The notes: a model not told the origin generated them from the letters alone. 64,000 bases of DNA from an uncultured Clostridia bacterium (GCA_947626145.1 CANQRB010000004.1:29250-93249), one strand, 5' to 3'. Shown: positions 4,533-33,244, numbered from the stretch's first letter. Made by a program: numbers and translations.

Positions 4533-4706
4533 TTATTGTTTCTGCTTCCAAACCTTATAATCGTCAACAACAGATTTTGTATCTGTGATAACTTTTGCCC
4601 CGGTTATGCCTAAACTGGTCGCTTGGAACAGAACCCCGTCCATAACGGCCTTATCGGGAGACAGGTCTTTAATATCTATTGCGGGATTTTCAAATGCTTT
4701 TCTCAT
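4533..4706 (-). CDS. Small hypothetical protein (57 aa), not in the ORF track
   Basis: Hand translation gives MRKAFENPAIDIKDLSPDKAVMDGVLFQATSLGITGAKVITDTKSVVDDYKVWKQKQ*. GGAGG lies 9 nt upstream of the ATG, and the ORF starts 14 nt after the stop of the 1034-aa gene. No family was recognised. Confidence 0.4.
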   Translation of the reverse strand: MRKAFENPAIDIKDLSPDKAVMDGVLFQATSLGITGAKVITDTKSVVDDYKVWKQKQ

Positions 4707-4720
4707 TTTAATCTACCTCC

Positions 4721-7700
4721 TTACAGCTCGGGAATGAAGTCGACTTCCGCACCAGCGGAATCAGCTTCGGTCTCGGCGATTTCGGTACTTACAAACTCAA
4801 TCTCAACACTGTCTAGGCTGAAGATCATAGCACCATCAACGCCTTCACAAGTAACATCATTGCCATTGATAGTTATCTTATAGAACAAGCCCTCAGTTTG
4901 AGTTGCTGTTTTATCTGTGCCGTTTACATCAACAATGGTAGATACCTTGAAGCCTATACCATTATCGTAAAGGGCTTTATCCAGTTCTATCGTTGTTCCT
5001 GCTTCACTGCTTGTAACTTTAATGAATTCTTTACGAACATCGTTAATAGCGTTCTTGTCATCAAGAACAACACCGCCGGTGCTGAGAATAGCAATGGCCT
5101 GTTCAAGCTTTTTTGCATCAAATTTTTCACGATTCAAAGTATCTTTGTAGTCGCTAAGGTTGGTTTTGATATCGTTAGCAAGCAACTCATAAAGAGATGC
5201 TTCAGCTTGAGCGATGAGATAACCGCTATTTGTGTCAACAAGCCTTGCCATATAGTAAATATTGCTTCCATTGTCTTTTTTCGGAATAACAAGTACAGAC
5301 GGAGCCCCGTTACTGAGGACAGAAGTGTCTATAGTCGTATTGTCTACTCCTTTACCGCCTTTTTCATTTGTTGTTTCGTGAAGATCAATAGCTGTAACCT
5401 TTAGCGTCTGTCCATCATAAGCACCATCGGCAGTAAAAGTTATGCCCAAAGTATCCGCACTGTCTCCATCAGCAGCAAAGCCAAGTCCAGCGGTGAGTGT
5501 AGCCGTCGCAGGAACGTCCACGCCACCTGCATATACGGCAAACTTGCTGATCTCAAGGTCTCCTTCACTTGAGGGATTGTTTCCAAAGAAGGAAACACCG
5601 TCAATTCCTCCATTGTTACGGAATGGTATGCCCATCAACATTTTACCTTCACCGGATGATTCATTCCGCACGGAAAGATTATATGTGTTATTTGTAACAT
5701 CAACATCTACGATAAAAGCATATGACTGATTAAGCTCCATTGTCATAAATTCTTTCTTGGCGGCGTTGTCTCTGTAGTAAATTTTGTCGCCACCGATAGG
5801 CAAATGAATACGAAGATTTGTGCCATACGCATCTGTCCCTTTTGCGTCGTACTTAAAAAATCCGATAGCGTTGTCGCCGTTTTGTTTGGCAACAAGAGTA
5901 AATGCGACGGTAAATTTGTCTGATATTTCTTTAGGGAAACGATACATTTCACTAAATGTCCTACCCTGATTGTTGATTACTGAGTTAGAACCAACGGTCA
6001 TGCCGGCTGTAGGATCAAATGTCTTTTCATGAGTCACAACATTTGCCGTCAAGGTAAGGCCTGTATCGGCGATAGTGCCGGTAGTATCCTCCCATGTTAC
6101 GGGCAATTCCTCGGCTGTCACTGCATCACTGTCAACAGTGGTCTTAATTGCGGTGGGAAGAACATAGTTATATCCTTCGAGAGTATTAATGTCAATGCTG
6201 TCGGGGCCGGTGATGGTGGCAGTTAACTCGGCCTCAACCTCAATTTCCTTAGTAGTGGTTGCGATAATAGTATCCTGATCAGACGCCTTATTGGTATAAT
6301 ATTTATCTGCTATGCGACGATTAGTAATAATCTTGCCATCACTGGCGGCACGGCCTTGATCAACGACCTGGTTTTCTGCAACTTTTACCGTTTCGCCTAC
6401 CTTGCCGGTCTGTTTCTCGATAGTGGCTACAGTTTGACCCTTGTATTTGGCATTTATGACGTAATCCACATCGTCGTTTTCAAGATTGCTAAGTTTGGTT
6501 ATTTTGAAGTTGTCGATGATGGGCTGAGTATCGTTACCGACCCAAGCGGTCTTAAAGCCCAGTTTTGTCTGCTTGGAACCGGTCCATACAATAAACTGCT
6601 TCGTCTCAAATTGATTGAGAGTGTGCAGGGTCATCTGCTGAAGCTTTTGGCTGGTATTGTCATTTTTGTCGGCATACCAATCAGCGCAGGGGTCGTCGGC
6701 CTCGCCGGTGCCATTGGCATCGGTTACGTAAAGCCACATATACTGATCCTTTGCCTGCTTGGTTGGCATGACGTCAAAGCTCACGAGATAACGGGTATTG
6801 GGGTCAACATTCCAAGTGCCGCCGAAAACAGTTCCGGCCGCACCGGCAACGCCCTTGAGCCAAAGAGCCTGGCTTCCTTCGGTCTTTTGGTTCTCACCCT
6901 TGACTATCTCATATTCTTCATTGGGTATATTAGTCCAACCATTAATACCATTTTCAAAGCCGTCGTTGGTGCCGGTAACAGTTCCCTCGACATTTTTTAC
7001 ATGTTTGGCGGTAATGTCGTAGTTGTTATTACCTTCACTCAAAGTGATCTCTTTGATTTCGGGGAGAGCAAGTTCATAAAGCTTTTCATTTTTAACAAGG
7101 TACTTGTTGCAACTGTTGAGAGAAAACTTATCTCCGGCAAAGTATTCCTTTTTATTTCCGTTTGGATTAGACTCCTCCAAAACATTTCCGCCGTCCATTA
7201 TGCGAACATTGACAGCAGCGTCGGGAGACAAAACCTTAACATCAGCAAGGTAAGCATCCTTAAGAGAAGCTACACCCCCAGTGGCATCTCCGCCGTGGAT
7301 ATTGGAGAGCAGAAAAGCGACCTTACCACCAACTATCTTATCGGCAGGAATACGGAGCTGAGACGTCACCTCAGTCCATGAATTAGATACATTTGATGTA
7401 CTCAGTGTTCCGACAAGAACTCTGCCCTCAACAGCAGTATCGAGCAGAGCGTTGTTCTCAGCTTCAACAGCTGCAGGGTCAACAGCAAAAATGGCAGCTT
7501 TAGATATACGGTCGTTAGCACCATTGTTAGACCATGCCTGAACCTTAAAGGTAGCCCGAAGAATTTGACCGGCAGCAACATTAGTGTCTTCTGGCAGTGT
7601 GAATTCAGCAAAACCCGCACGGTTATTTGAGAAAGACACTATGGCAGACTGAGCGTCTTGAACTTTGTATTCGTCAAATGTTTGCGGACGCTTAGCATCG

Positions 7701-7825
7701 GAATTAAAATTCCAACCATAAAGCTTATCTGCGGCGATATCTCCATCAGCCGCAAAAGCTACGGGCACTACTGTCAATACCATGGCCAAAACCACAGCCA
7801 ATGACAGAACTTTTTTGATTCTCAT
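4721..7825 (-). CDS. Large secreted protein of unknown function (1034 aa) with an Ig-like/carbohydrate-binding-like flavour
   Basis: AGGAGG RBS and a signal peptide MRIKKVLSLAVVLAMVLTVVPVAFAADG. The sequence is AT-rich relative to the core. An internal segment (LPTAIKTTVDSDAVTAEELPVTWED) resembles bacterial Ig-like repeats. No LPXTG or SLH anchor was seen. Confidence 0.8.
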   Translation of the reverse strand: MRIKKVLSLAVVLAMVLTVVPVAFAADGDIAADKLYGWNFNSDAKRPQTFDEYKVQDAQSAIVSFSNNRAGFAEFTLPEDTNVAAGQILRATFKVQAWSNNGANDRISKAAIFAVDPAAVEAENNALLDTAVEGRVLVGTLSTSNVSNSWTEVTSQLRIPADKIVGGKVAFLLSNIHGGDATGGVASLKDAYLADVKVLSPDAAVNVRIMDGGNVLEESNPNGNKKEYFAGDKFSLNSCNKYLVKNEKLYELALPEIKEITLSEGNNNYDITAKHVKNVEGTVTGTNDGFENGINGWTNIPNEEYEIVKGENQKTEGSQALWLKGVAGAAGTVFGGTWNVDPNTRYLVSFDVMPTKQAKDQYMWLYVTDANGTGEADDPCADWYADKNDNTSQKLQQMTLHTLNQFETKQFIVWTGSKQTKLGFKTAWVGNDTQPIIDNFKITKLSNLENDDVDYVINAKYKGQTVATIEKQTGKVGETVKVAENQVVDQGRAASDGKIITNRRIADKYYTNKASDQDTIIATTTKEIEVEAELTATITGPDSIDINTLEGYNYVLPTAIKTTVDSDAVTAEELPVTWEDTTGTIADTGLTLTANVVTHEKTFDPTAGMTVGSNSVINNQGRTFSEMYRFPKEISDKFTVAFTLVAKQNGDNAIGFFKYDAKGTDAYGTNLRIHLPIGGDKIYYRDNAAKKEFMTMELNQSYAFIVDVDVTNNTYNLSVRNESSGEGKMLMGIPFRNNGGIDGVSFFGNNPSSEGDLEISKFAVYAGGVDVPATATLTAGLGFAADGDSADTLGITFTADGAYDGQTLKVTAIDLHETTNEKGGKGVDNTTIDTSVLSNGAPSVLVIPKKDNGSNIYYMARLVDTNSGYLIAQAEASLYELLANDIKTNLSDYKDTLNREKFDAKKLEQAIAILSTGGVVLDDKNAINDVRKEFIKVTSSEAGTTIELDKALYDNGIGFKVSTIVDVNGTDKTATQTEGLFYKITINGNDVTCEGVDGAMIFSLDSVEIEFVSTEIAETEADSAGAEVDFIPEL

Positions 7826-7878
7826 TTTTGTTACCTCCTTAAAATTTTGCTAAAAAATAAATCCTCGATTTCATGCGC

Positions 7879-7909
7879 ACTTCCTATAAGAAATGCTATC
7901 GGAAGTAAA
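7879..7909. repeat. Left copy of a 31-bp inverted repeat (itself a hairpin)
   Basis: acttccTata-agaaatgc-tatcggaagt-aaa. Its reverse complement matches 8184-8214 at 30 of 31 positions, including the 8-nt loop. Confidence 0.9.
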
Positions 7910-8022
7910 TTTATGCCGTTTTACGGCAATATTTACAACATAAAAATGAAAATTAGAAATTATTTGTTGAAATTGCACAATTACTCACAACAATTTTGTA
8001 CATTATGGATAAGGGAAAGATA

Positions 8023-8052
8023 TTGACTTTTTTATGGCAAAAGTAGTATAAT
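8023..8052 (+). promoter_or_regulatory. Near-consensus sigma-70-type promoter pointing away from the 1034-aa gene
   Basis: TTGACT (8023-8028), an 18-nt spacer, then TATAAT (8047-8052). It lies inside the segment bracketed by the inverted repeats. Confidence 0.7.
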
Positions 8053-8183
8053 TAGATTATAAAATTTCATGTGCCGATCATAGGAAAGCCTCGGAAAAAG
8101 GCCGTGTTAAGCCGGATTTGCCCGGTTGACGGCGCAGAGGTCGACTGCAAAGCCAGCCTTGGAGCGATGAATGGCCGCTCGGT

Positions 8184-8214
8184 TTTACTTCCGATAGCAT
8201 TTCTTATCGGAAGT
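8184..8214. repeat. Right copy of the 31-bp inverted repeat (perfect 10-bp-stem hairpin)
   Basis: ttt-acttccgata-gcatttct-tatcggaagt. The loop is the exact reverse complement of the left-copy loop. Confidence 0.9.
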
Positions 8215-8229
8215 TCGATGAAATCATAC

Positions 8230-8283
8230 AAAAAAGCACCTGTGACAAGCTCTTTATCGTGAGCTTGCCGCAGGTGTTTTTTT
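8230..8283. terminator. Strong bidirectional intrinsic terminator
   Basis: CACCTGTGACAAGCTC-tttatcgt-GAGCTTGCCGCAGGTG pairs at 14 of 16 positions. An A6 run precedes it and a T7 run follows. Confidence 0.85.
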
Positions 8284-8317
8284 AATGTGATGCCGTTATT
8301 TTCGATATAACGCAAAA

Positions 8318-8343
8318 AGCAGCCGATTTCGGCCGCTTTTTTT
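8318..8343. terminator. Second intrinsic terminator between the switch region and the ECF sigma gene
   Basis: aaaaAGCAGCC-gatttc-GGCCGCTttttttt, with one stem mismatch. Confidence 0.55.
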
Positions 8344-8425
8344 ATTATACGCCTACGTCGCAATCCGTTCTTTGGTATCATAGTTGTATAGGCTTGTATT
8401 TCGCATAAAAAATTTAAAATTTTCC

Positions 8426-8453
8426 TGCAACTTTTCGATCCTTTGCAACGAAT
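8426..8453 (+). promoter_or_regulatory. Candidate ECF-type (autoregulatory) promoter
   Basis: TGCAAC (8426-8431), a 17-nt spacer, then CGAAT (8449-8453), about 20 nt upstream of the sigma-factor start. The AAC ... CG pattern is typical of ECF promoters. Confidence 0.3.
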
Positions 8454-8471
8454 ATATTAAGTGGAAGGAGG

Positions 8472-9041
8472 TTGAGCGGATTGGCGGCGGAGCACGAGGA
8501 ACTTAAATGGATAAGGAAAATCAAGCTGTTCGGTTCAAAAAAAGACGCCGACAGTCTGGTTCGGTCTTATTACGATGAGATTTACAGATATGTATCCCGA
8601 CAGCTTCCCGACAGCGGGGACGCCTGGGATCTTACTCAGGAAATCTTTATATCCATGCTGCGCTCCATAAAGTCGTACAAAAAAGAACGGTCGTCCTTCC
8701 GCACATGGCTGTACCGCATCGCCACAAACAAAATTATAGACTGCCGCCGGAAAAAGGTTCCGACGACTGCCGCGCCCGACGAAGTCAATACAGCCGACGA
8801 TGCCGATTTTATAAGTCAAATCGCCCAGGCCGAGCTGCTGAAAAAAATCGAGGGCTATGTCAACCGCTTTTCGCCCGCCGTGCAGCAGATATACAGACTG
8901 CACATTTACGGGGATTTTACCTTCGCAAGCATCGCTTCAGCCCTGGACATCCCTGAGGCCACCGTAAAATCCCACTATTACAGATTGCAGAAAAAAATAA
9001 GAGAGGAGTTTGGCGATGAGTACAGAGACGTTGTCGAATGA
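8472..9041 (+). CDS. ECF-family RNA polymerase sigma factor
   Basis: Region 2 (DAWDLTQEIFISMLRSIKSYK...FRTWLYRIATNKIIDCRRKK) and region 4 HTH (FASIASALDIPEATVKSHYYRLQKKIRE). The start is TTG 8472, or more likely TTG 8481, which lies 9 nt after GGAGG. Confidence 0.9.
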   Translation: MSGLAAEHEELKWIRKIKLFGSKKDADSLVRSYYDEIYRYVSRQLPDSGDAWDLTQEIFISMLRSIKSYKKERSSFRTWLYRIATNKIIDCRRKKVPTTAAPDEVNTADDADFISQIAQAELLKKIEGYVNRFSPAVQQIYRLHIYGDFTFASIASALDIPEATVKSHYYRLQKKIREEFGDEYRDVVE

Positions 9042-13927: not shown

Positions 13928-16900
13928 TTATAAGGCTATCATACCATCAGTTTCATCATTACCATTAAGTTCTTCGTCCTTTTTGCCTGTGTTTTTATTC
14001 TCAGATATATCTCCTTCGAAAGCTGTTTCGACGGACTCTTCATTTTTAAGTTCTTTGCCTCCAAACTCATTACTGATATCCTTTATTGGCACTTTGTCTG
14101 GCAAGGATTCAATAGAAACTAGTGACTCTTCATCATGATAATTTATTAATATGCCATTAGATATTTTGAATACAGGCCAAGAGTTTCCTGATTGGTTAGA
14201 AGAAACTTTGTACACCTCAACTAAGTTATTTCCATTATATAACTCTACCTGTGCACCCGAAGTCGCCCAAGTACCTTCACCGTAGAACCAGTATACATAA
14301 TATTCATATGTGCTATTTATGTCCACTTCAAATGTAACGGTTTCCGGCCCTTCTCCATCGGTATCATCCACATCCAAATTGGCCACCAAATCTCCTGATG
14401 CATTATATCCGTTTCTGTTAGAAAAATATACATGAAAGTTTCTATGGTCTGAAAGGCTTCCAACCAAATGAGAGTCTAAGTCGCTGGGATTCATGTTCCA
14501 ACGAAGAACTGCCCTATATTGATTGCTAGTCATCGAAGGAGAAATGCTTCCATTTTGATTGGCAACTTCTCTTCCCCCAATTATTGTGACGTTGAAATAT
14601 CCGGTGGTGTATCCGTACTTTTCCATTTCTATTGTATAATACCCAGAGGATGCAGTTAGTGAATATTCACCACTACCGTTAGTTATTGTTGAAGATATTT
14701 CCTCACCTTTACTACTATTCCACCCGTTTCTCAACCTGACTATTACGCCATCAATAGGATATCCGGTTGTTGCGCTTGTAATAACGCCGCTTATTTTTCC
14801 TTCACCAGACTTTACAAGTTTAACAAGTTCTTCTGTTTGGTTGTCTTTTGTTACTGTCGCAAGCCCGTAGAAAGGCATATAACCGTCTTTTTCAATAACA
14901 ACAGAATATGTTCCCACATCAAGAGACAGTTCTTTTGCTCCCTCTGCGCCTATTTGAACTTTCCCAATCAAGAAATCATCATCAAGTATAGATATAGTTG
15001 CATCTTTTATAAATGTTTCATCTTCCGCATCAACAATTTGTATATAAAGAGTACCTCTATCCCCATATATACCAACATCATCAAATGCACGTTTTATAGT
15101 CATTTTTTCCGCTTTAGACAATCCCTGAGTATCAGCTTGAAGCAGTACATTTCTCCTTACGGTTTTAAAGTTAGAATTTGCACTGAAGCCCTTGCCCAAC
15201 GAACCATACCATAGGTCTATAAGCTTAGACATTGAAATGGCCGGAAGACTATAAGAGGGATAGCCTTGTGACATTAAATATGCAGCATGAGAAATTACTG
15301 ATGAATTCGTGTGAGCAAATACTGATTTATTACCAGTATTAGTGCACCAATTAGTTCCACCAACTTTACTGGGCTTATGGCAGGAAGATGGATCCTTAAC
15401 ATTTCTTAATGGTCGCCAGTCCTCCCCTATGGTATAGTTATTATCATCAACGAACCATCCAAAGATATCTGCGTATGCTTCGTTGATTGCATAAGATATA
15501 TGACCATTACTGTGATCGTGACTAAGTCCATTCCCTGTCTTAAACTGAACTACTCCATGAGTGTACTCATGAGCAATAATATCAAGTCCGCTGGCCGTAG
15601 TAGTTTGGAGATTACTGTCGTTATTACTATTATCATAAAAATAGAATTCTTTGTTGCCGCCTGTCCAACACGCATTACTACTGCCTCCAAATTTATGAAC
15701 AGTTACTTTAATAGGATATCCATTCCCGTCCACAGAGCGTCTGCCCAAAGTGTCCGCATACCAATTATATACATCTATCATATTGGTGTATGCAGAAATA
15801 GCCGTTTTATCTCGCCATACATTAAATTCACTGCCAACTCTACTATTAACAAGTCCCCCATCATACATTTTAATGTTTCTCTCTGAATCTTCCATATAGT
15901 AGAATAACCAATCCCATTGTTTAAATTGTACGGGGAATGACACTTCGGTATTTTTTTCATTTTCACCGCTACCAGTTACTCTTTTGTCGCCCCAGTCTAA
16001 AATATTGCTTCCAGAATAAATTACGGAACCAGTATATCCATTTATGATTACAGTTTCGTCAATATTGTCGCCAGACAAACAAATTACATATGCTACAACA
16101 GGACTTTGCTCATATTCATCAAGAGAATATATAACTACCTCTGTTGATACAACATCTACTGATTCTTGCGGGTACTGACTTTTAGCAATATTTATTGCTT
16201 CACTTTCTGATATCACGGGGTCGGTATTTACATCAACTAAGTTTGCAGATGCAACTACATCGGATGTTAATGAAGTAGATGTTCCATTATTATCTACAGA
16301 CACGGTTAAATTTCTATCATAAACGTCAAGCCCATTATATTGTTGACTAAAAGTATAATCAGTTCCGTATTTGCCAGAATTTGTCACAGATATATTTAAT
16401 TCTTTTATTGGATCGTTCATGCCAAGAATTGTTCGAACTCCGTATATTGCATAAAGAGCATCGTCTGGGGAGTTTATATCAATATCACTTATTTTACCAC
16501 TTATCGCTGTTACTTGGGATCCCTCTTCATTGTATTCTATATAAGTATCAAAATCTGCATCCTTATTCATTTGCTCTATATCGACAACTGAATTATTAGG
16601 AGACTCATTAATATTAAAGTTACTTTCTTTTATAACCGTAACTTCAAAAGATTTTGTTAAATTATAGTCTCCTTTCGATATGCTAGCGTTGAGTCTAACA
16701 TTTTTATTCTCATTTATCGGACGTGAGACGGAACCGCTTTCTGAAACTACATTAATATTGTTACTTTCCCATGATATATCTACTGTTTCAATCATTGTTG
16801 GTAAAATCAAATCATGAGTAACAGATTCTTTACAGTCACCTTTACTATATGTAATTTCAAGAGTATCATATGCATATTGAACTATCGCTTTATTAAATTC

Positions 16901-18244
16901 ATTCTCATCATATTCTACCCACCTTGCATACAAAGTTAATTTATTGTTAACGGCCAATTTAAAATCATAGATATTTTCGCAATCCCTATCAGTATACCAG
17001 CCACCAAACAAATAATCTTTACGTTCAGGGTCTTTGGGAATTGTAACATTATTTCCAGCTAAAATCTCTTGACTTTCAGGCGCATCCTCTGCCCCTTCAT
17101 AATTCAAATCAAAGGTGACAGTGTAAACGCCGTCCTCCTCAATTTCTTCTTCCCAACCAGCATACAGAGTCAAGCGCTCGGTAATTTCCGTGTTCTCAAA
17201 ATCAAACTCATAAACGCATTCCTCATCTGTGTACCAGCCCGTGAAGATATAGCCCTCTCTTTCGGGATCATCGGGACGCTCTGCATAATCGTTCTTCTTT
17301 ACTTTCTGGGTAGCCGGAGGATTTTTCGCTCCTGAATAATTCAGGTCAAATTTTACATTGTATCTCGTGGTGCCGCCGGAGCTTCCGCCACCACCGCCAC
17401 CACCGGTGGAACGACTTATCGTATATTCAACGCTCATCACATCGCTGACAAGAACATCATCTTTTACCGCGATTGCCTTCAGTGTCGCGGTAGACAGTAT
17501 ATTTATATTGCCACCTGTGTATTCCTCGCTGTCAACTGTGGGCTCTGTTCCATCGGTCGTATAGTAAATCTTAACGCCCTCGGTGTCGCTCTTAAGCGTT
17601 ACAAGCTGATTTACATAATATGTGCCCGCCTCAACGGACGCGACAGGGGCGGCTACCGTTGTGCGGAGACCGTTATAAACCATTACGGCAATGTCCCCAC
17701 GGGTAGAGGCTGATCCCTTTCTGCCCTTGAGGTTATCCGTTATACCGTTATCCTCAGCCGCTTTAATATAGCCGGCAGACCAATCATCAGGGTCGGATTC
17801 AACATCGTCGCCAAGACCGACGCCGCAAACCACCATCTTTATGGCCTCTTCATATTTGACGTCGTCATCCGGCATAAATCCGCCGCTACCGTTGCCGTTT
17901 ATTATCTCCTCTTTCGCGGCGACATTGATGTAGCCGCTGGCCCAGTGGTCGGCGGGAACATCGTCAAACTTTGTGGCGCCCTTGGAATTGCGGGCATCGT
18001 TCTCCTTGCCTATCATGCGGCATACTACCGCCGCCATTTCGGACCTTGTGATAGATTTATCCGCCCCAAATGTACCGTCGGCGTAGCCGGTGAAAATGTC
18101 GAGCTTTTCCAGAGCGAGAGCCGCCTCGGCGTAATACTCATTCCCCGTAACATCGGAAAAGACCGTGCCTGCGGCAAAAGCACCGATCGGCGCAAGCGAC
18201 AGTGTCATTGCCAAAACTAAAATGATGCTTAAAAATTTTTTCAC
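13928..18244 (-). CDS. S-layer-homology-anchored multidomain M4 (thermolysin-like) metalloprotease
   Basis: GTG start 8 nt after GGAGG, then a signal peptide. SLH-type repeats are present (FSDVTGNEYYAEAALALEKLDIFTGY..., FDDVPADHWASGYI...). A poly-Gly linker follows. Two InlB-B/Listeria-Bacteroides-type repeats are seen (YNVKFDLNYSG...GYIFTGWYTD, YTVTFDLNYEG...DYLFGGWYTD). The zinc site is IIAHEYTHGV with a downstream NEAYADIFG. C-terminal beta-sandwich-like repeats complete the protein. Confidence 0.9.
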   Translation of the reverse strand: MKKFLSIILVLAMTLSLAPIGAFAAGTVFSDVTGNEYYAEAALALEKLDIFTGYADGTFGADKSITRSEMAAVVCRMIGKENDARNSKGATKFDDVPADHWASGYINVAAKEEIINGNGSGGFMPDDDVKYEEAIKMVVCGVGLGDDVESDPDDWSAGYIKAAEDNGITDNLKGRKGSASTRGDIAVMVYNGLRTTVAAPVASVEAGTYYVNQLVTLKSDTEGVKIYYTTDGTEPTVDSEEYTGGNINILSTATLKAIAVKDDVLVSDVMSVEYTISRSTGGGGGGGSSGGTTRYNVKFDLNYSGAKNPPATQKVKKNDYAERPDDPEREGYIFTGWYTDEECVYEFDFENTEITERLTLYAGWEEEIEEDGVYTVTFDLNYEGAEDAPESQEILAGNNVTIPKDPERKDYLFGGWYTDRDCENIYDFKLAVNNKLTLYARWVEYDENEFNKAIVQYAYDTLEITYSKGDCKESVTHDLILPTMIETVDISWESNNINVVSESGSVSRPINENKNVRLNASISKGDYNLTKSFEVTVIKESNFNINESPNNSVVDIEQMNKDADFDTYIEYNEEGSQVTAISGKISDIDINSPDDALYAIYGVRTILGMNDPIKELNISVTNSGKYGTDYTFSQQYNGLDVYDRNLTVSVDNNGTSTSLTSDVVASANLVDVNTDPVISESEAINIAKSQYPQESVDVVSTEVVIYSLDEYEQSPVVAYVICLSGDNIDETVIINGYTGSVIYSGSNILDWGDKRVTGSGENEKNTEVSFPVQFKQWDWLFYYMEDSERNIKMYDGGLVNSRVGSEFNVWRDKTAISAYTNMIDVYNWYADTLGRRSVDGNGYPIKVTVHKFGGSSNACWTGGNKEFYFYDNSNNDSNLQTTTASGLDIIAHEYTHGVVQFKTGNGLSHDHSNGHISYAINEAYADIFGWFVDDNNYTIGEDWRPLRNVKDPSSCHKPSKVGGTNWCTNTGNKSVFAHTNSSVISHAAYLMSQGYPSYSLPAISMSKLIDLWYGSLGKGFSANSNFKTVRRNVLLQADTQGLSKAEKMTIKRAFDDVGIYGDRGTLYIQIVDAEDETFIKDATISILDDDFLIGKVQIGAEGAKELSLDVGTYSVVIEKDGYMPFYGLATVTKDNQTEELVKLVKSGEGKISGVITSATTGYPIDGVIVRLRNGWNSSKGEEISSTITNGSGEYSLTASSGYYTIEMEKYGYTTGYFNVTIIGGREVANQNGSISPSMTSNQYRAVLRWNMNPSDLDSHLVGSLSDHRNFHVYFSNRNGYNASGDLVANLDVDDTDGEGPETVTFEVDINSTYEYYVYWFYGEGTWATSGAQVELYNGNNLVEVYKVSSNQSGNSWPVFKISNGILINYHDEESLVSIESLPDKVPIKDISNEFGGKELKNEESVETAFEGDISENKNTGKKDEELNGNDETDGMIAL

Positions 18245-18342
18245 GATTGTAACCTCCAATTTTATTTATTCACTTTCTAATTGCAGGAAAACACCGCCAC
18301 TGTATGTCACGCCCCCTTTTGGGCGAATTTGTCCTCCGTACA

Positions 18343-33153: not shown

Positions 33154-33244
33154 TGGCGGAGAGAAAGGGATTCGAACCCTTGATCGGGGTTAACCGATAC
33201 ACGATTTCCAGTCGTGCGCCTTAGACCAGCTCAGCCATCTCTCC
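33154..33244 (-). tRNA. tRNA-Ser (anticodon GGA)
   Basis: Folded by hand. The acceptor stem is GGAGAGA/TCTCTCC. The anticodon arm is CACGA-CUGGAAA-UCGUG. A long variable arm (ATCGG...CCGAT) and a T-arm (AAGGG-TTCGAAT-CCCTT) are present. The discriminator is G and CCA is encoded. Confidence 0.93.

Follow-up and report, generated by a model that had tools for sequence, protein, structure and literature searches.

A candidate invertible promoter with dif-like sites upstream of a large secreted-protein gene in an uncultured Clostridia bacterium

The 64,000-nucleotide stretch CANQRB010000004.1:29250-93249 of an uncultured Clostridia bacterium (GCA_947626145.1), referred to in its entirety as the window, contains, between a gene for a 1034-aa secreted protein and an operon headed by an extracytoplasmic function (ECF) sigma factor gene, a short segment that we interpret as a probable invertible promoter, or inverton, of the secreted-protein gene. 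An initial annotation, made from the sequence alone, had proposed such a switch because inverted repeats bracket a near-consensus promoter at this place; here the locus is compared with its paralogs and with other genomes. The right-hand operon starts at 8472 with the ECF sigma factor, followed by an ATP-binding cassette (ABC) transporter, and the window is otherwise ordinary chromosomal DNA (SecA, PrfB, DnaK/DnaJ, aro and arg genes, penicillin-binding proteins) in which the only gathering-level Rfam match is a tRNA (33157-33244, minus strand). The features of the locus are given below, "six loci" denoting this locus and the five paralogous ones described further on.

4533..4706, minus strand: 57-aa open reading frame (ORF), immediately downstream of the 1034-aa gene
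4721..7825, minus strand: gene of the 1034-aa secreted protein, with weak matches of the carbohydrate-binding module (CBM)/lectin-like kind and a Sec signal peptide, MRIKKVLSLAVVLAMVLTVVPVAFA followed by AD
7826..7878, minus strand: 5' untranslated region (5'UTR) with the ribosome-binding site (RBS) AAGGAGGT, 88% conserved across loci; 7868-7878 is GCGCATGAAAT on the minus strand
7879..7906, no strand: gene-proximal candidate recombination site, with outer arm ACTTCCTATA, centre AGAAATGC and inner arm TATCGGAAGT
7907..8186, no strand: candidate invertible segment between the sites, 278-280 bp in all six loci, holding the regulator box, promoter and leader
7973..8006, plus strand: conserved upstream box TTGCACAA...CAATTTTGTACATTAT, 50 nt upstream of the -35 element
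8023..8052, plus strand: predicted sigma-70-type promoter, 91% conserved across loci, pointing away from the 1034-aa gene
8053..8186, plus strand: predicted G+C-rich leader RNA, 55-59% G+C against 25-30% around it; 8064-8074 is AUUUCAUGUGC
8187..8214, no strand: distal candidate recombination site, with inner arm ACTTCCGATA, centre GCATTTCT and outer arm TATCGGAAGT
8215..8229, plus strand: outer flank TCGATGAAATCATAC, a partial inverted copy of 7863-7878, present in four of the six loci
8230..8283, plus strand: predicted terminator 1 of the bidirectional type, between an A run and a T run, with a 12-nt loop
8306..8349, plus strand: predicted terminator 2, with a mismatched stem at about 8318-8343, then T7

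On direct reading, the repeat at 7879-7909 (ACTTCCTATAAGAAATGCTATCGGAAGTAAA) matches the reverse complement of 8184-8214 at 30 of 31 positions, the single mismatch (T/G) lying at 7885. A repeat search extends the arms to 34 nt (7876-7909 and 8184-8217; 32 of 34 positions, or 94%, complementary; 274 nt apart), and similarity on the outer side runs on to about 7863 and 8229 if one indel is allowed. The 8-nt centre is inverted together with the arms, from AGAAATGC to GCATTTCT, as had been annotated. The further search for copies that the initial annotation had called for, run on the window with up to three mismatches permitted, returned only these two, 308 bp apart (0.00 expected by chance). The proximal repeat stands 53 bp from the ATG of the 1034-aa gene at position 7825, a start codon borne out by its GGAGG RBS and by the typical Sec signal peptide that follows. 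The same layout, in which inverted repeats bound a short segment beside the gene presumed to be regulated, is found at five further loci.

The arms of each repeat copy, ACTTCC(G/T)ATA and TAT(C/A)GGAAGT, are 10 bp long and inverted, and the 8-bp centre that they enclose is non-palindromic. Related sites mostly have a centre of the form A-N6-T, giving 11-bp arms around a 6-bp centre, and when the site is read in this way the outer arm of the proximal copy, ACTTCCTATAA, is identical to the first arm of the dif site of the Gram-positive bacterium Staphylococcus aureus. The S. aureus dif site is ACTTCCTATAA-TATATA-TTATGTAAACT (PMC11040001); Bacillus subtilis has ACTTCCTAGAA. Two inverted arms enclosing an asymmetric crossover region of 6-8 bp, identical in the partner copy, support the view that each repeat is a tyrosine-recombinase core site, with two putative monomer-binding arms and a crossover region that would set its polarity. 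Two features that define dif itself are not found: instead of one XerC-type and one XerD-type arm (the latter TTATGTAAACT in Firmicutes), both arms are of the ACTTCCKATAA type, with a match to dif at the first arm only, and instead of a single copy per replicon near the terminus there are two copies here and further pairs at co-occurring paralogous loci. It had been cautioned earlier that the 10-bp-stem hairpin contained in each repeat might point to an operator or a repetitive extragenic palindromic (REP) element; that caution falls away, because inverted arms around an asymmetric centre are the anatomy of a tyrosine-recombinase core site, so that self-complementarity is the expected look of a site bound by a recombinase dimer and supports the switch. 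A weak Rfam match to RAGATH-12 at 7832-7898 (minus strand), spanning the proximal site and the 5'UTR with the common stretch CUUAUAGGAA, scores 22 bits (E = 0.16) where the gathering cut-off is 75, and is probably a chance resemblance.

Within the segment, the sequence TTGACT-18-TATAAT at 8023-8052 (plus strand) scores 11/12 and is the best promoter-like site in the region, in agreement with the initial annotation. Judged by sequence alone, it lies inside the segment and is predicted to drive the 1034-aa gene in one orientation only; a comparison of module copies identified no conserved promoter of the gene's own outside the segment. The weaker leftward promoter suggested earlier, TTGTGC-17-TCTAAT, does exist in the window, but its -10 element is not conserved in the other module copies and it is probably not functional. 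Frame-breaking indels between copies indicate that the leader is non-coding, and the 63-aa and 104-aa ORFs of its G+C-rich core, considered as possible genes, belong to no Pfam family and are likewise broken by indels elsewhere. At 8134-8148 the leader would form the hairpin GCAG-AGGUCGA-CUGC, whose 7-nt loop, AGGUCGA (with the palindrome GUCGAC), is invariant in every leader of the gene family (the window, L119, L121, L122, L126, L130 and L138; L and P numbers are our labels for loci) while the stem varies among GCAG/CUGC, CGG/CCG, GUAG/CUGC and CAG/CUG; the element may bind a protein or act as a kissing loop. In Rfam 15 nothing at E values up to 10 covers the leader at 8053-8186 or the paralog leader searched, and no family is found for the region or for the AGGUCGA hairpin.

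To the right of the distal repeat stand the two terminators that had been annotated, G+C-rich hairpins (8230-8283 and 8306-8349) with a T run after each. A simple terminator scan missed both, probably owing to the 12-nt loop of the first and the stem mismatch of the second. Terminator 1 is 90% identical at locus L133 and is kept by compensatory changes at L045. By its predicted activity it stops transcripts from the promoter in its present, parked orientation, and terminator 2 is predicted to insulate the switch from the ECF operon. The far-side genes differ at every locus, being an ECF sigma factor in the window and an HD-domain protein, a terminase fragment, RelB or Hsp33 elsewhere. Because these genes vary by locus while the terminator next to them is kept, the switch belongs to the secreted-protein gene, and the ECF operon, which had been named as the other neighbour of the locus and was considered as a possible target, is an accidental neighbour separated from the promoter by both terminators.

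The region 7780-8343 has full-length counterparts of 80-86% identity ahead of homologous genes for large secreted proteins at five other loci: L059 and L045, which belong to the same rabbit-gut Clostridia metagenome-assembled genome (MAG); L123-125 (P0007), found together with the gene of the window in sample ERZ27249462; L133-135 (P0016); and L130-132 (P0012), which is degraded. Intact ORFs of 1034-1537 aa lie downstream at all six. Mean pairwise identity is 97-100% in the inner arms (100% across the six loci in that of the distal site), 91% in the promoter, 88-90% in the RBS and gene start and 85-87% in the outer arms, against 53-60% in the stretches between functional elements. The 8-bp centres (GCATTTCT in the window, GTAATACT, ATATTCCT, GCATTCCT in P0007, and ATGTTCCT) are 68% identical between loci, yet within loci they are matched at 47 of 48 positions. 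Conserved arms combined with centres that are free to vary but matched in pairs are a requirement of strand exchange, which neither an operator pair nor a REP element would impose. Differing centres would also prevent recombination between loci.

The content of the segment can be understood from members of the family that carry no sites (L119/120, L121, L122 and L126). In these, a sense-oriented TTGCACAA-type box stands 61-69 nt upstream of the -35 element, followed by a TTGACA-17/18-TAnAAT promoter and a G+C-rich leader with AGGTCGAC. In the window segment, box (at -50), promoter and leader (with AGGTCGACT at +86) succeed one another in just this way but point away from the gene, which supports the interpretation that what the sites enclose is the native promoter and leader of the gene family in reversed orientation. 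The box, found as TTGCACAA, TTGTACAA or TTGTGCAA at -61 to -69 in paralogs with a fixed promoter or an ON layout (L119, L121, L122, L126 and L138), is presumed, and seems likely, to be a binding site of a shared transcription factor that travels with the promoter; every family member has it ahead of its promoter, and at the switch loci it is enclosed in the segment. At L138 (P0011), promoter, leader, a single site, RBS and gene follow one another in the order predicted for the junction of the flipped state. Another locus, P0015 (L140 2913-2941; CANRJP010000025.1, 1537-aa gene), has the same single site with a 9-nt centre (ACTTCCGATA-ATATTCCCT-TATAGGAAGT) and the same 5'UTR as P0011 (L138 372-400; 1247-aa gene), the promoter and leader standing ahead of P0011 only; in the MAG, P0011 is on the strand opposite to P0015 and about 3 kb downstream of it, so that the two sites would form an inverted pair of about 11 kb that could pass a single promoter back and forth between the genes. 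The Joint Genome Institute (JGI) metagenome collection lacks the module, and a 22-nt core pattern also found nothing; three matches to a 21-nt invariant stretch in a metagenome scan were chance hits in high-GC coding DNA.

A further feature emerged when the predicted ON transcripts were built for the six loci. The 5' end of the leader at 8064-8074 (AUUUCAUGUGC), inside the segment, is complementary to 7868-7878 of the 5'UTR (reverse complement GCGCAUGAAAU), outside it, so that the two would form a contiguous helix of 9-11 bp in all six ON transcripts, with energies of -11 to -17 kcal/mol against -5 to -11 for the distal (OFF) flank and about -6 to -8 for shuffled flanks. In the alignment of this helix 90.6% of cells pair, a figure that falls to 23-56% if one strand is shifted against its partner; in two of the pairs both members change, and compensation specific to a locus is seen at L059 (CAUGGG/CCCAUG) and L133 (U-A to C-G). 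At L138, natively in the ON arrangement, the corresponding position is taken by a 16-bp helix unrelated in sequence (-16.2 kcal/mol). In these six modelled sequences the pattern suggests that a junction-spanning helix confined to the ON transcript has been conserved, and a real helix would mean that selection has worked on an RNA made only once the segment has inverted. The outer flank at 8215-8229 lets the 5' end of the leader pair weakly in the OFF transcript too.

Sites of this kind are widespread. An exact scan for ACTTCCKATA-N8-TATMGGAAGT in one genome per species recovered at least 117 stretches where about two would be expected (596 Gb, uniform composition), and the matches listed include Clostridia, Bacteroidota, Lentisphaerota, Rhodothermales, Acidobacteriota and Proteobacteria. 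When the ORFs around the matches listed were clustered, the commonest neighbour was a tyrosine recombinase of 266-344 aa, which recurs at about 27 loci, in general at a distance of 8-200 bp; in two Lachnospiraceae (L007 and L092) the recombinase gene directly abuts an inverted pair. The best NCBIfam matches of these site-adjacent recombinases are XerA, XerC and XerD, all below the equivalog cut-offs, and their family is large (7,990 of 8,000 candidates below E 1e-20). A search anchored on the spacer found an inverted partner with the reverse-complement centre for 21 of 123 sites, compared with none when the centre was shuffled. Most matched pairs enclose 118-280 bp, and their positions include the space between two divergent SusC-like genes (L022), the upstream region of a pilin-like gene (L017), and the neighbourhood of an Ig-domain surface protein (L080) and of an initiating glycosyltransferase (L016). 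By association, then, the ACTTCCKATA-type sequence behaves as a general inversion site linked to surface-structure genes. A sequence search of the literature returned only primers and quotations of dif, with no match in the supplements of inverton catalogues, which are partly without text, and the present repeat family goes unmentioned in the searchable text of the inverton literature examined.

Several other arrangements of the site were encountered during this survey. In Duncaniella, the segment at L022 4120-4391 (216 bp between matched sites and divergent SusC-like genes) is accompanied on the same contig by a third site with the same centre beside another SusC paralog (L042 1534-1561), a shufflon-like layout that recalls the Tsr0667 system of Bacteroides fragilis. 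Several Clostridia MAGs carry direct tandem arrays of three to four copies spaced by 95-182 bp, mostly with the centre GTTTATAT (L053 3430-3896, L031 92-417, L038 4461-4788, L056 7195-7404 and L009 1274-1491), and L009 has, in alternation with them, a longer variant with a 28-nt hairpin between its arms; recombination between directly repeated sites would give deletion, not inversion. A single conserved site stands 20-200 bp from a tyrosine-recombinase gene in Rhodothermales (L006, L012, L067, L083, L113 and L115) and in Asaia (L003, L008, L052, L063, L071, L086 and L094), the distance in Asaia being always about 20 bp where the gene was fetched, a layout resembling single-recombinase Xer/dif systems (XerS/difSL) or an integrase with its attachment site. 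Victivallaceae/Lentisphaeria MAGs each contain several such sites, whose flanks are conserved (CGCGCCAGCG...site...TTCACYCTGATYGAA; L004, L010, L017, L024, L027, L033, L043, L057, L061, L093 and L103), adjoining paralogous pilin-like genes with an N-terminal methylation motif, which suggests a multi-locus inversion system for a pilin-like family.

Taken together, these data are compatible with the following mechanism. In the OFF state, represented by the window, the promoter would fire rightwards, and a transcript of about 225 nt (from about 8059 to about 8283), consisting of the leader and the site hairpin, would run into terminator 1, with terminator 2 as back-up. A trans-acting Xer-like tyrosine recombinase encoded elsewhere in the genome would bind the four arms, synapse the two sites, exchange strands within the matched centres and flip 7907-8186. 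The promoter would then read through the leader, the proximal site, the RBS and the gene, across a junction that on the minus strand would be ...GGCCGCTCGGTTTT-ACTTCCGATAGCATTTCTTATAGGAAGT-GCGCATGAAATCG, and pairing of 8064-8074 with 7868-7878 would close a leader domain possible only in the ON state. With locus-specific centres, one enzyme could toggle several members of the family independently, with no recombination across loci. The probability that the segment is an invertible promoter for the 1034-aa secreted-protein gene, seen in its OFF orientation, is in our estimate about 0.7. The earlier proposal that a flip would aim the promoter at this gene is favoured by all the comparisons made: the architecture of the sites, the Xer-like recombinase genes and matched inverted pairs found with the same site elsewhere, the matching of the centres, the turned cassette, the ON layout at L138 and the junction helix.

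A number of observations weigh against an active switch. The activities of promoter and terminators are predicted only, and the covariation in the ON helix is modest, since values as high as those observed turn up in 31-38 of 500 shuffles (n = 6). On viral contigs, recombinases closely related to the site-adjacent one occur without the site (in 80 such loci neither the site nor any inversion variant was found), so that site specificity varies within the recombinase family and the link between enzyme and site is one of association only. Some module copies show decay, in the outer arms of L130 and in one centre mismatch at L045, which suggests that they are degenerating. As the initial annotation had noted, no recombinase adjoins the locus: Pfam, tblastn and hidden Markov model searches found none of any type in the 64 kb, nor was one found in about 130 kb of other contigs from these organisms, barring a phage-type integrase in L130. 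This integrase (Phage_int_SAM_3 and Phage_integrase domains; 7426-8544, minus strand), 1.4 kb downstream of the P0012 gene in one sample, is missing at the same place in the NCBI MAG (L131), an insertion polymorphism, and it is probably a mobile element unrelated to the switch.

The orientation data also belong among these adverse points. About 15 assemblies of the six loci (three of the window locus, namely the window, L001 and L139; three each of P0007, P0016 and P0012; one each of P0006 and P0008) all have the same, OFF, orientation, with no flipped copy, and an ON-type layout is seen at the paralogous locus L138 only. The initial annotation had named a single orientation across strains as a reason to abandon the switch, and formally this is what the assemblies give; they are, however, consensus sequences at 3-7x coverage, which cannot show a minority orientation. 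A single orientation is moreover weak evidence because the cwpV switch of Clostridioides difficile is itself strongly OFF-biased (about 5% ON and 95% OFF), its published reference genome being OFF (PMC2784873). A site-agnostic search for orientation variants across all fetched genome loci found none, L022 and L042 being paralogs on one contig. L068, examined against L016 as a possible recombinant junction, is only 85% identical in its outer flank and is a paralogous locus rather than a flipped allele. Two independent SPAdes assemblies, L001 and L139, both end at window position 7993, inside the segment; as the sequence there becomes identical to paralogous modules, contigs broken by this repeat are the most likely explanation, rather than inversion.

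Several of these observations are shared by the alternative that survives best, although we regard it as unlikely: a fossil switch, once inverted (or the product of a single ancestral inversion) and now fixed, which would give a terminated RNA of about 225 nt and leave the 1034-aa gene silent or otherwise expressed. The uniform orientation of the assemblies, the failure to find a recombinase in the sequences searched and the decay at L130 and L045 would all fit, and L138, with its single site, looks locked in the ON state. Fixation would nevertheless leave the conservation to be accounted for, since continuing selection or gene conversion would be needed to hold inner arms at 97-100% and centres at 47 of 48 positions while neighbouring sequence drifted to 53-60%. 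Nor would it readily explain why all six downstream genes are intact ORFs or why compensatory changes have kept the junction helix, and consensus assemblies blind to a minority orientation carry little weight in its favour.

A reading without any recombination is rather improbable. It would take the palindromes as operators of a dimeric regulator or as protein-binding RNA hairpins, shared by a rightward small RNA gene and the leftward secreted-protein gene. Each copy is indeed a 10-bp-stem hairpin whose sequence, read in the direction of transcription, is the same in both transcripts, and promoter, leader and terminator together resemble a self-contained small RNA gene. That supposed gene is, however, homologous to the sense-oriented promoter and leader of the paralogs, there is no conserved leftward promoter for the 1034-aa gene, and the G-to-T arm variant of the proximal site weakens its RNA hairpin; operators need no inverted, co-varying, locus-specific and non-palindromic centre, and the same sequence adjoins tyrosine-recombinase genes and matches the dif arm. 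Least probable is a non-autonomous mobile element, REP-like or akin to a miniature inverted-repeat transposable element, that carries a promoter by chance and was inserted upstream of several genes: a unit of about 336 bp with 34-bp terminal inverted repeats and several copies per genome at 80-86% identity would suit it, but the dispersed copies named in the initial annotation as a mark of REP-like behaviour are absent (two hairpins in 64 kb, both here), the flanks are inverted rather than direct with no target-site duplication, the copies always hold the same position relative to a homologous gene, and the homology runs past the repeats into the RBS and signal peptide and into the terminator, and therefore the whole 5' region was duplicated along with the gene family.

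The gene placed under the putative invertible promoter belongs to a family whose other members carry Laminin_G_3, Big_4 or CBM96 domains. A ratio of nonsynonymous to synonymous substitution could not be computed for the 1034-aa gene, as the available alleles differ at two positions only. An ORF of 56-59 aa follows every large gene of the family after 15-20 bp (L001, L119-L142), forming a conserved two-gene unit; these small ORFs have no Pfam family and no obvious hydrophobic segment. Elsewhere in the window, 13931-18259 (minus strand) encodes another large cell-surface protein, a 1443-aa SLH-domain thermolysin-like (M4) peptidase with Listeria-Bacteroides repeats.

If confirmed, the invertible promoter would mean that the members of a family of large, lectin-like secreted proteins undergo phase variation individually in an uncultured rabbit-gut Clostridium, as is expected of molecules that face host immunity, phage or a changing glycan supply. 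A widespread inverton repeat linked to Xer/dif would suggest how the machinery of dimer resolution came to serve phase variation, and the combination of symmetric ACTTCCKATAA arms and a matched asymmetric centre would provide a simple sequence rule for finding switches from assemblies alone. The locus-specific centres would be a natural counterpart of engineered heterospecific lox sites, and the junction-spanning leader helix, if real, an unusual coupling of DNA inversion to RNA structure. A broader scheme, possible but on balance doubtful, can be offered tentatively. In it, ACTTCCGATAA-N6-TTATCGGAAGT would be the symmetric site, with XerC-type dif arms on both sides and locus-specific centres, of a cross-phylum family of Xer-derived invertases, such that a single trans-acting enzyme might toggle many promoters independently and leave the chromosome unscrambled; in the Clostridial lineage the site would have been built into the mRNA with a leader helix closing the junction, so that DNA orientation and RNA structure were selected together, and in the OFF state this leader would be set free as a small, terminated RNA.

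Among known systems, the initial annotation had likened the locus both to the invertons of gut Bacteroides and to the cwpV and flagellar switches of C. difficile. The former likeness stands, the promoter being inside the segment: as in fimS of Escherichia coli (FimB/FimE) and the B. fragilis systems of Tsr19 and Tsr0667, a short segment bounded by inverted repeats carries the promoter of an adjacent surface- or secreted-protein gene. Bacteroides invertons also occur at several paralogous loci per genome, and their recombinase can act on distant sites; the B. fragilis master invertases act on many regions, SusC/SusD clusters included (PMC4747536). The present locus differs from these in its complete, self-symmetric dif-like core sites with locus-specific centres (a comparison made without the Bacteroides repeat sequences), in its structured leader with a junction-spanning helix and in a terminator dedicated to the parked promoter. 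With the RecV-dependent switches of C. difficile it shares the position of a Clostridial (here candidate) switch of the tyrosine-recombinase type upstream of a large secreted or cell-wall protein and a similar distance from repeat to start codon (57 bp in cwpV, 53 bp here); their recombinase is encoded elsewhere, as it would be here. The likeness to cwpV does not extend to the mechanism. There the promoter lies outside a 195-bp switch and the OFF state is due to a terminator formed in the leader transcript (PMC2784873), an arrangement not found here, where the promoter is inside and is OFF by pointing away; and the cwpV repeats are imperfect 21-mers, in contrast to sites of 28-34 bp with internal dyad symmetry.

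The sites themselves have the plan of the Xer/dif systems (XerC/XerD, XerS/difSL, XerH/difH and XerA/dif), an 11-bp arm, a 6-8-bp centre and an 11-bp arm, and in other taxa the recombinase gene is often beside its site, as in single-recombinase Xer systems. They differ from dif in that both arms are of one type, with no TTATGTAAACT XerD-type arm; in their many copies per genome as against one at the terminus; in their arrangement as inverted pairs around promoters, which points to inversion rather than dimer resolution; and in that the site-adjacent recombinases score below the XerC, XerD and XerA equivalog cut-offs. In Cre/loxP, symmetric arms flank an asymmetric 8-bp spacer that sets orientation, inverted sites invert the DNA between them, and differing spacers, as in heterospecific lox sites, do not cross-react, a behaviour matched by the locus-specific centres described here; no Cre-like protein was identified. 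The loxP sequence, ATAACTTCGTATA-GCATACAT-TATACGAAGTTAT, shares 8 of 10 arm positions and 5 of 8 spacer positions with the distal site, a resemblance that may be coincidental. In the mpl system of Mycoplasma penetrans and the vpma system of Mycoplasma agalactiae, paralogous surface proteins are controlled individually or alternately by Xer-like recombinases acting at short 5' repeats, although the organisms, repeats and proteins are all unlike those discussed here, and we know of no structured leader or parking terminator described for either. The candidate switch is, in function, an inverton of the fimS/Bacteroides type, with a site related to dif that nevertheless lacks two of the features by which dif is defined. 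What sets it beyond ordinary invertons is the identity of its arm with a dif arm and the spread of the site across phyla, the locus-specific centres, the terminator for the parked promoter and the predicted leader helix across the junction.

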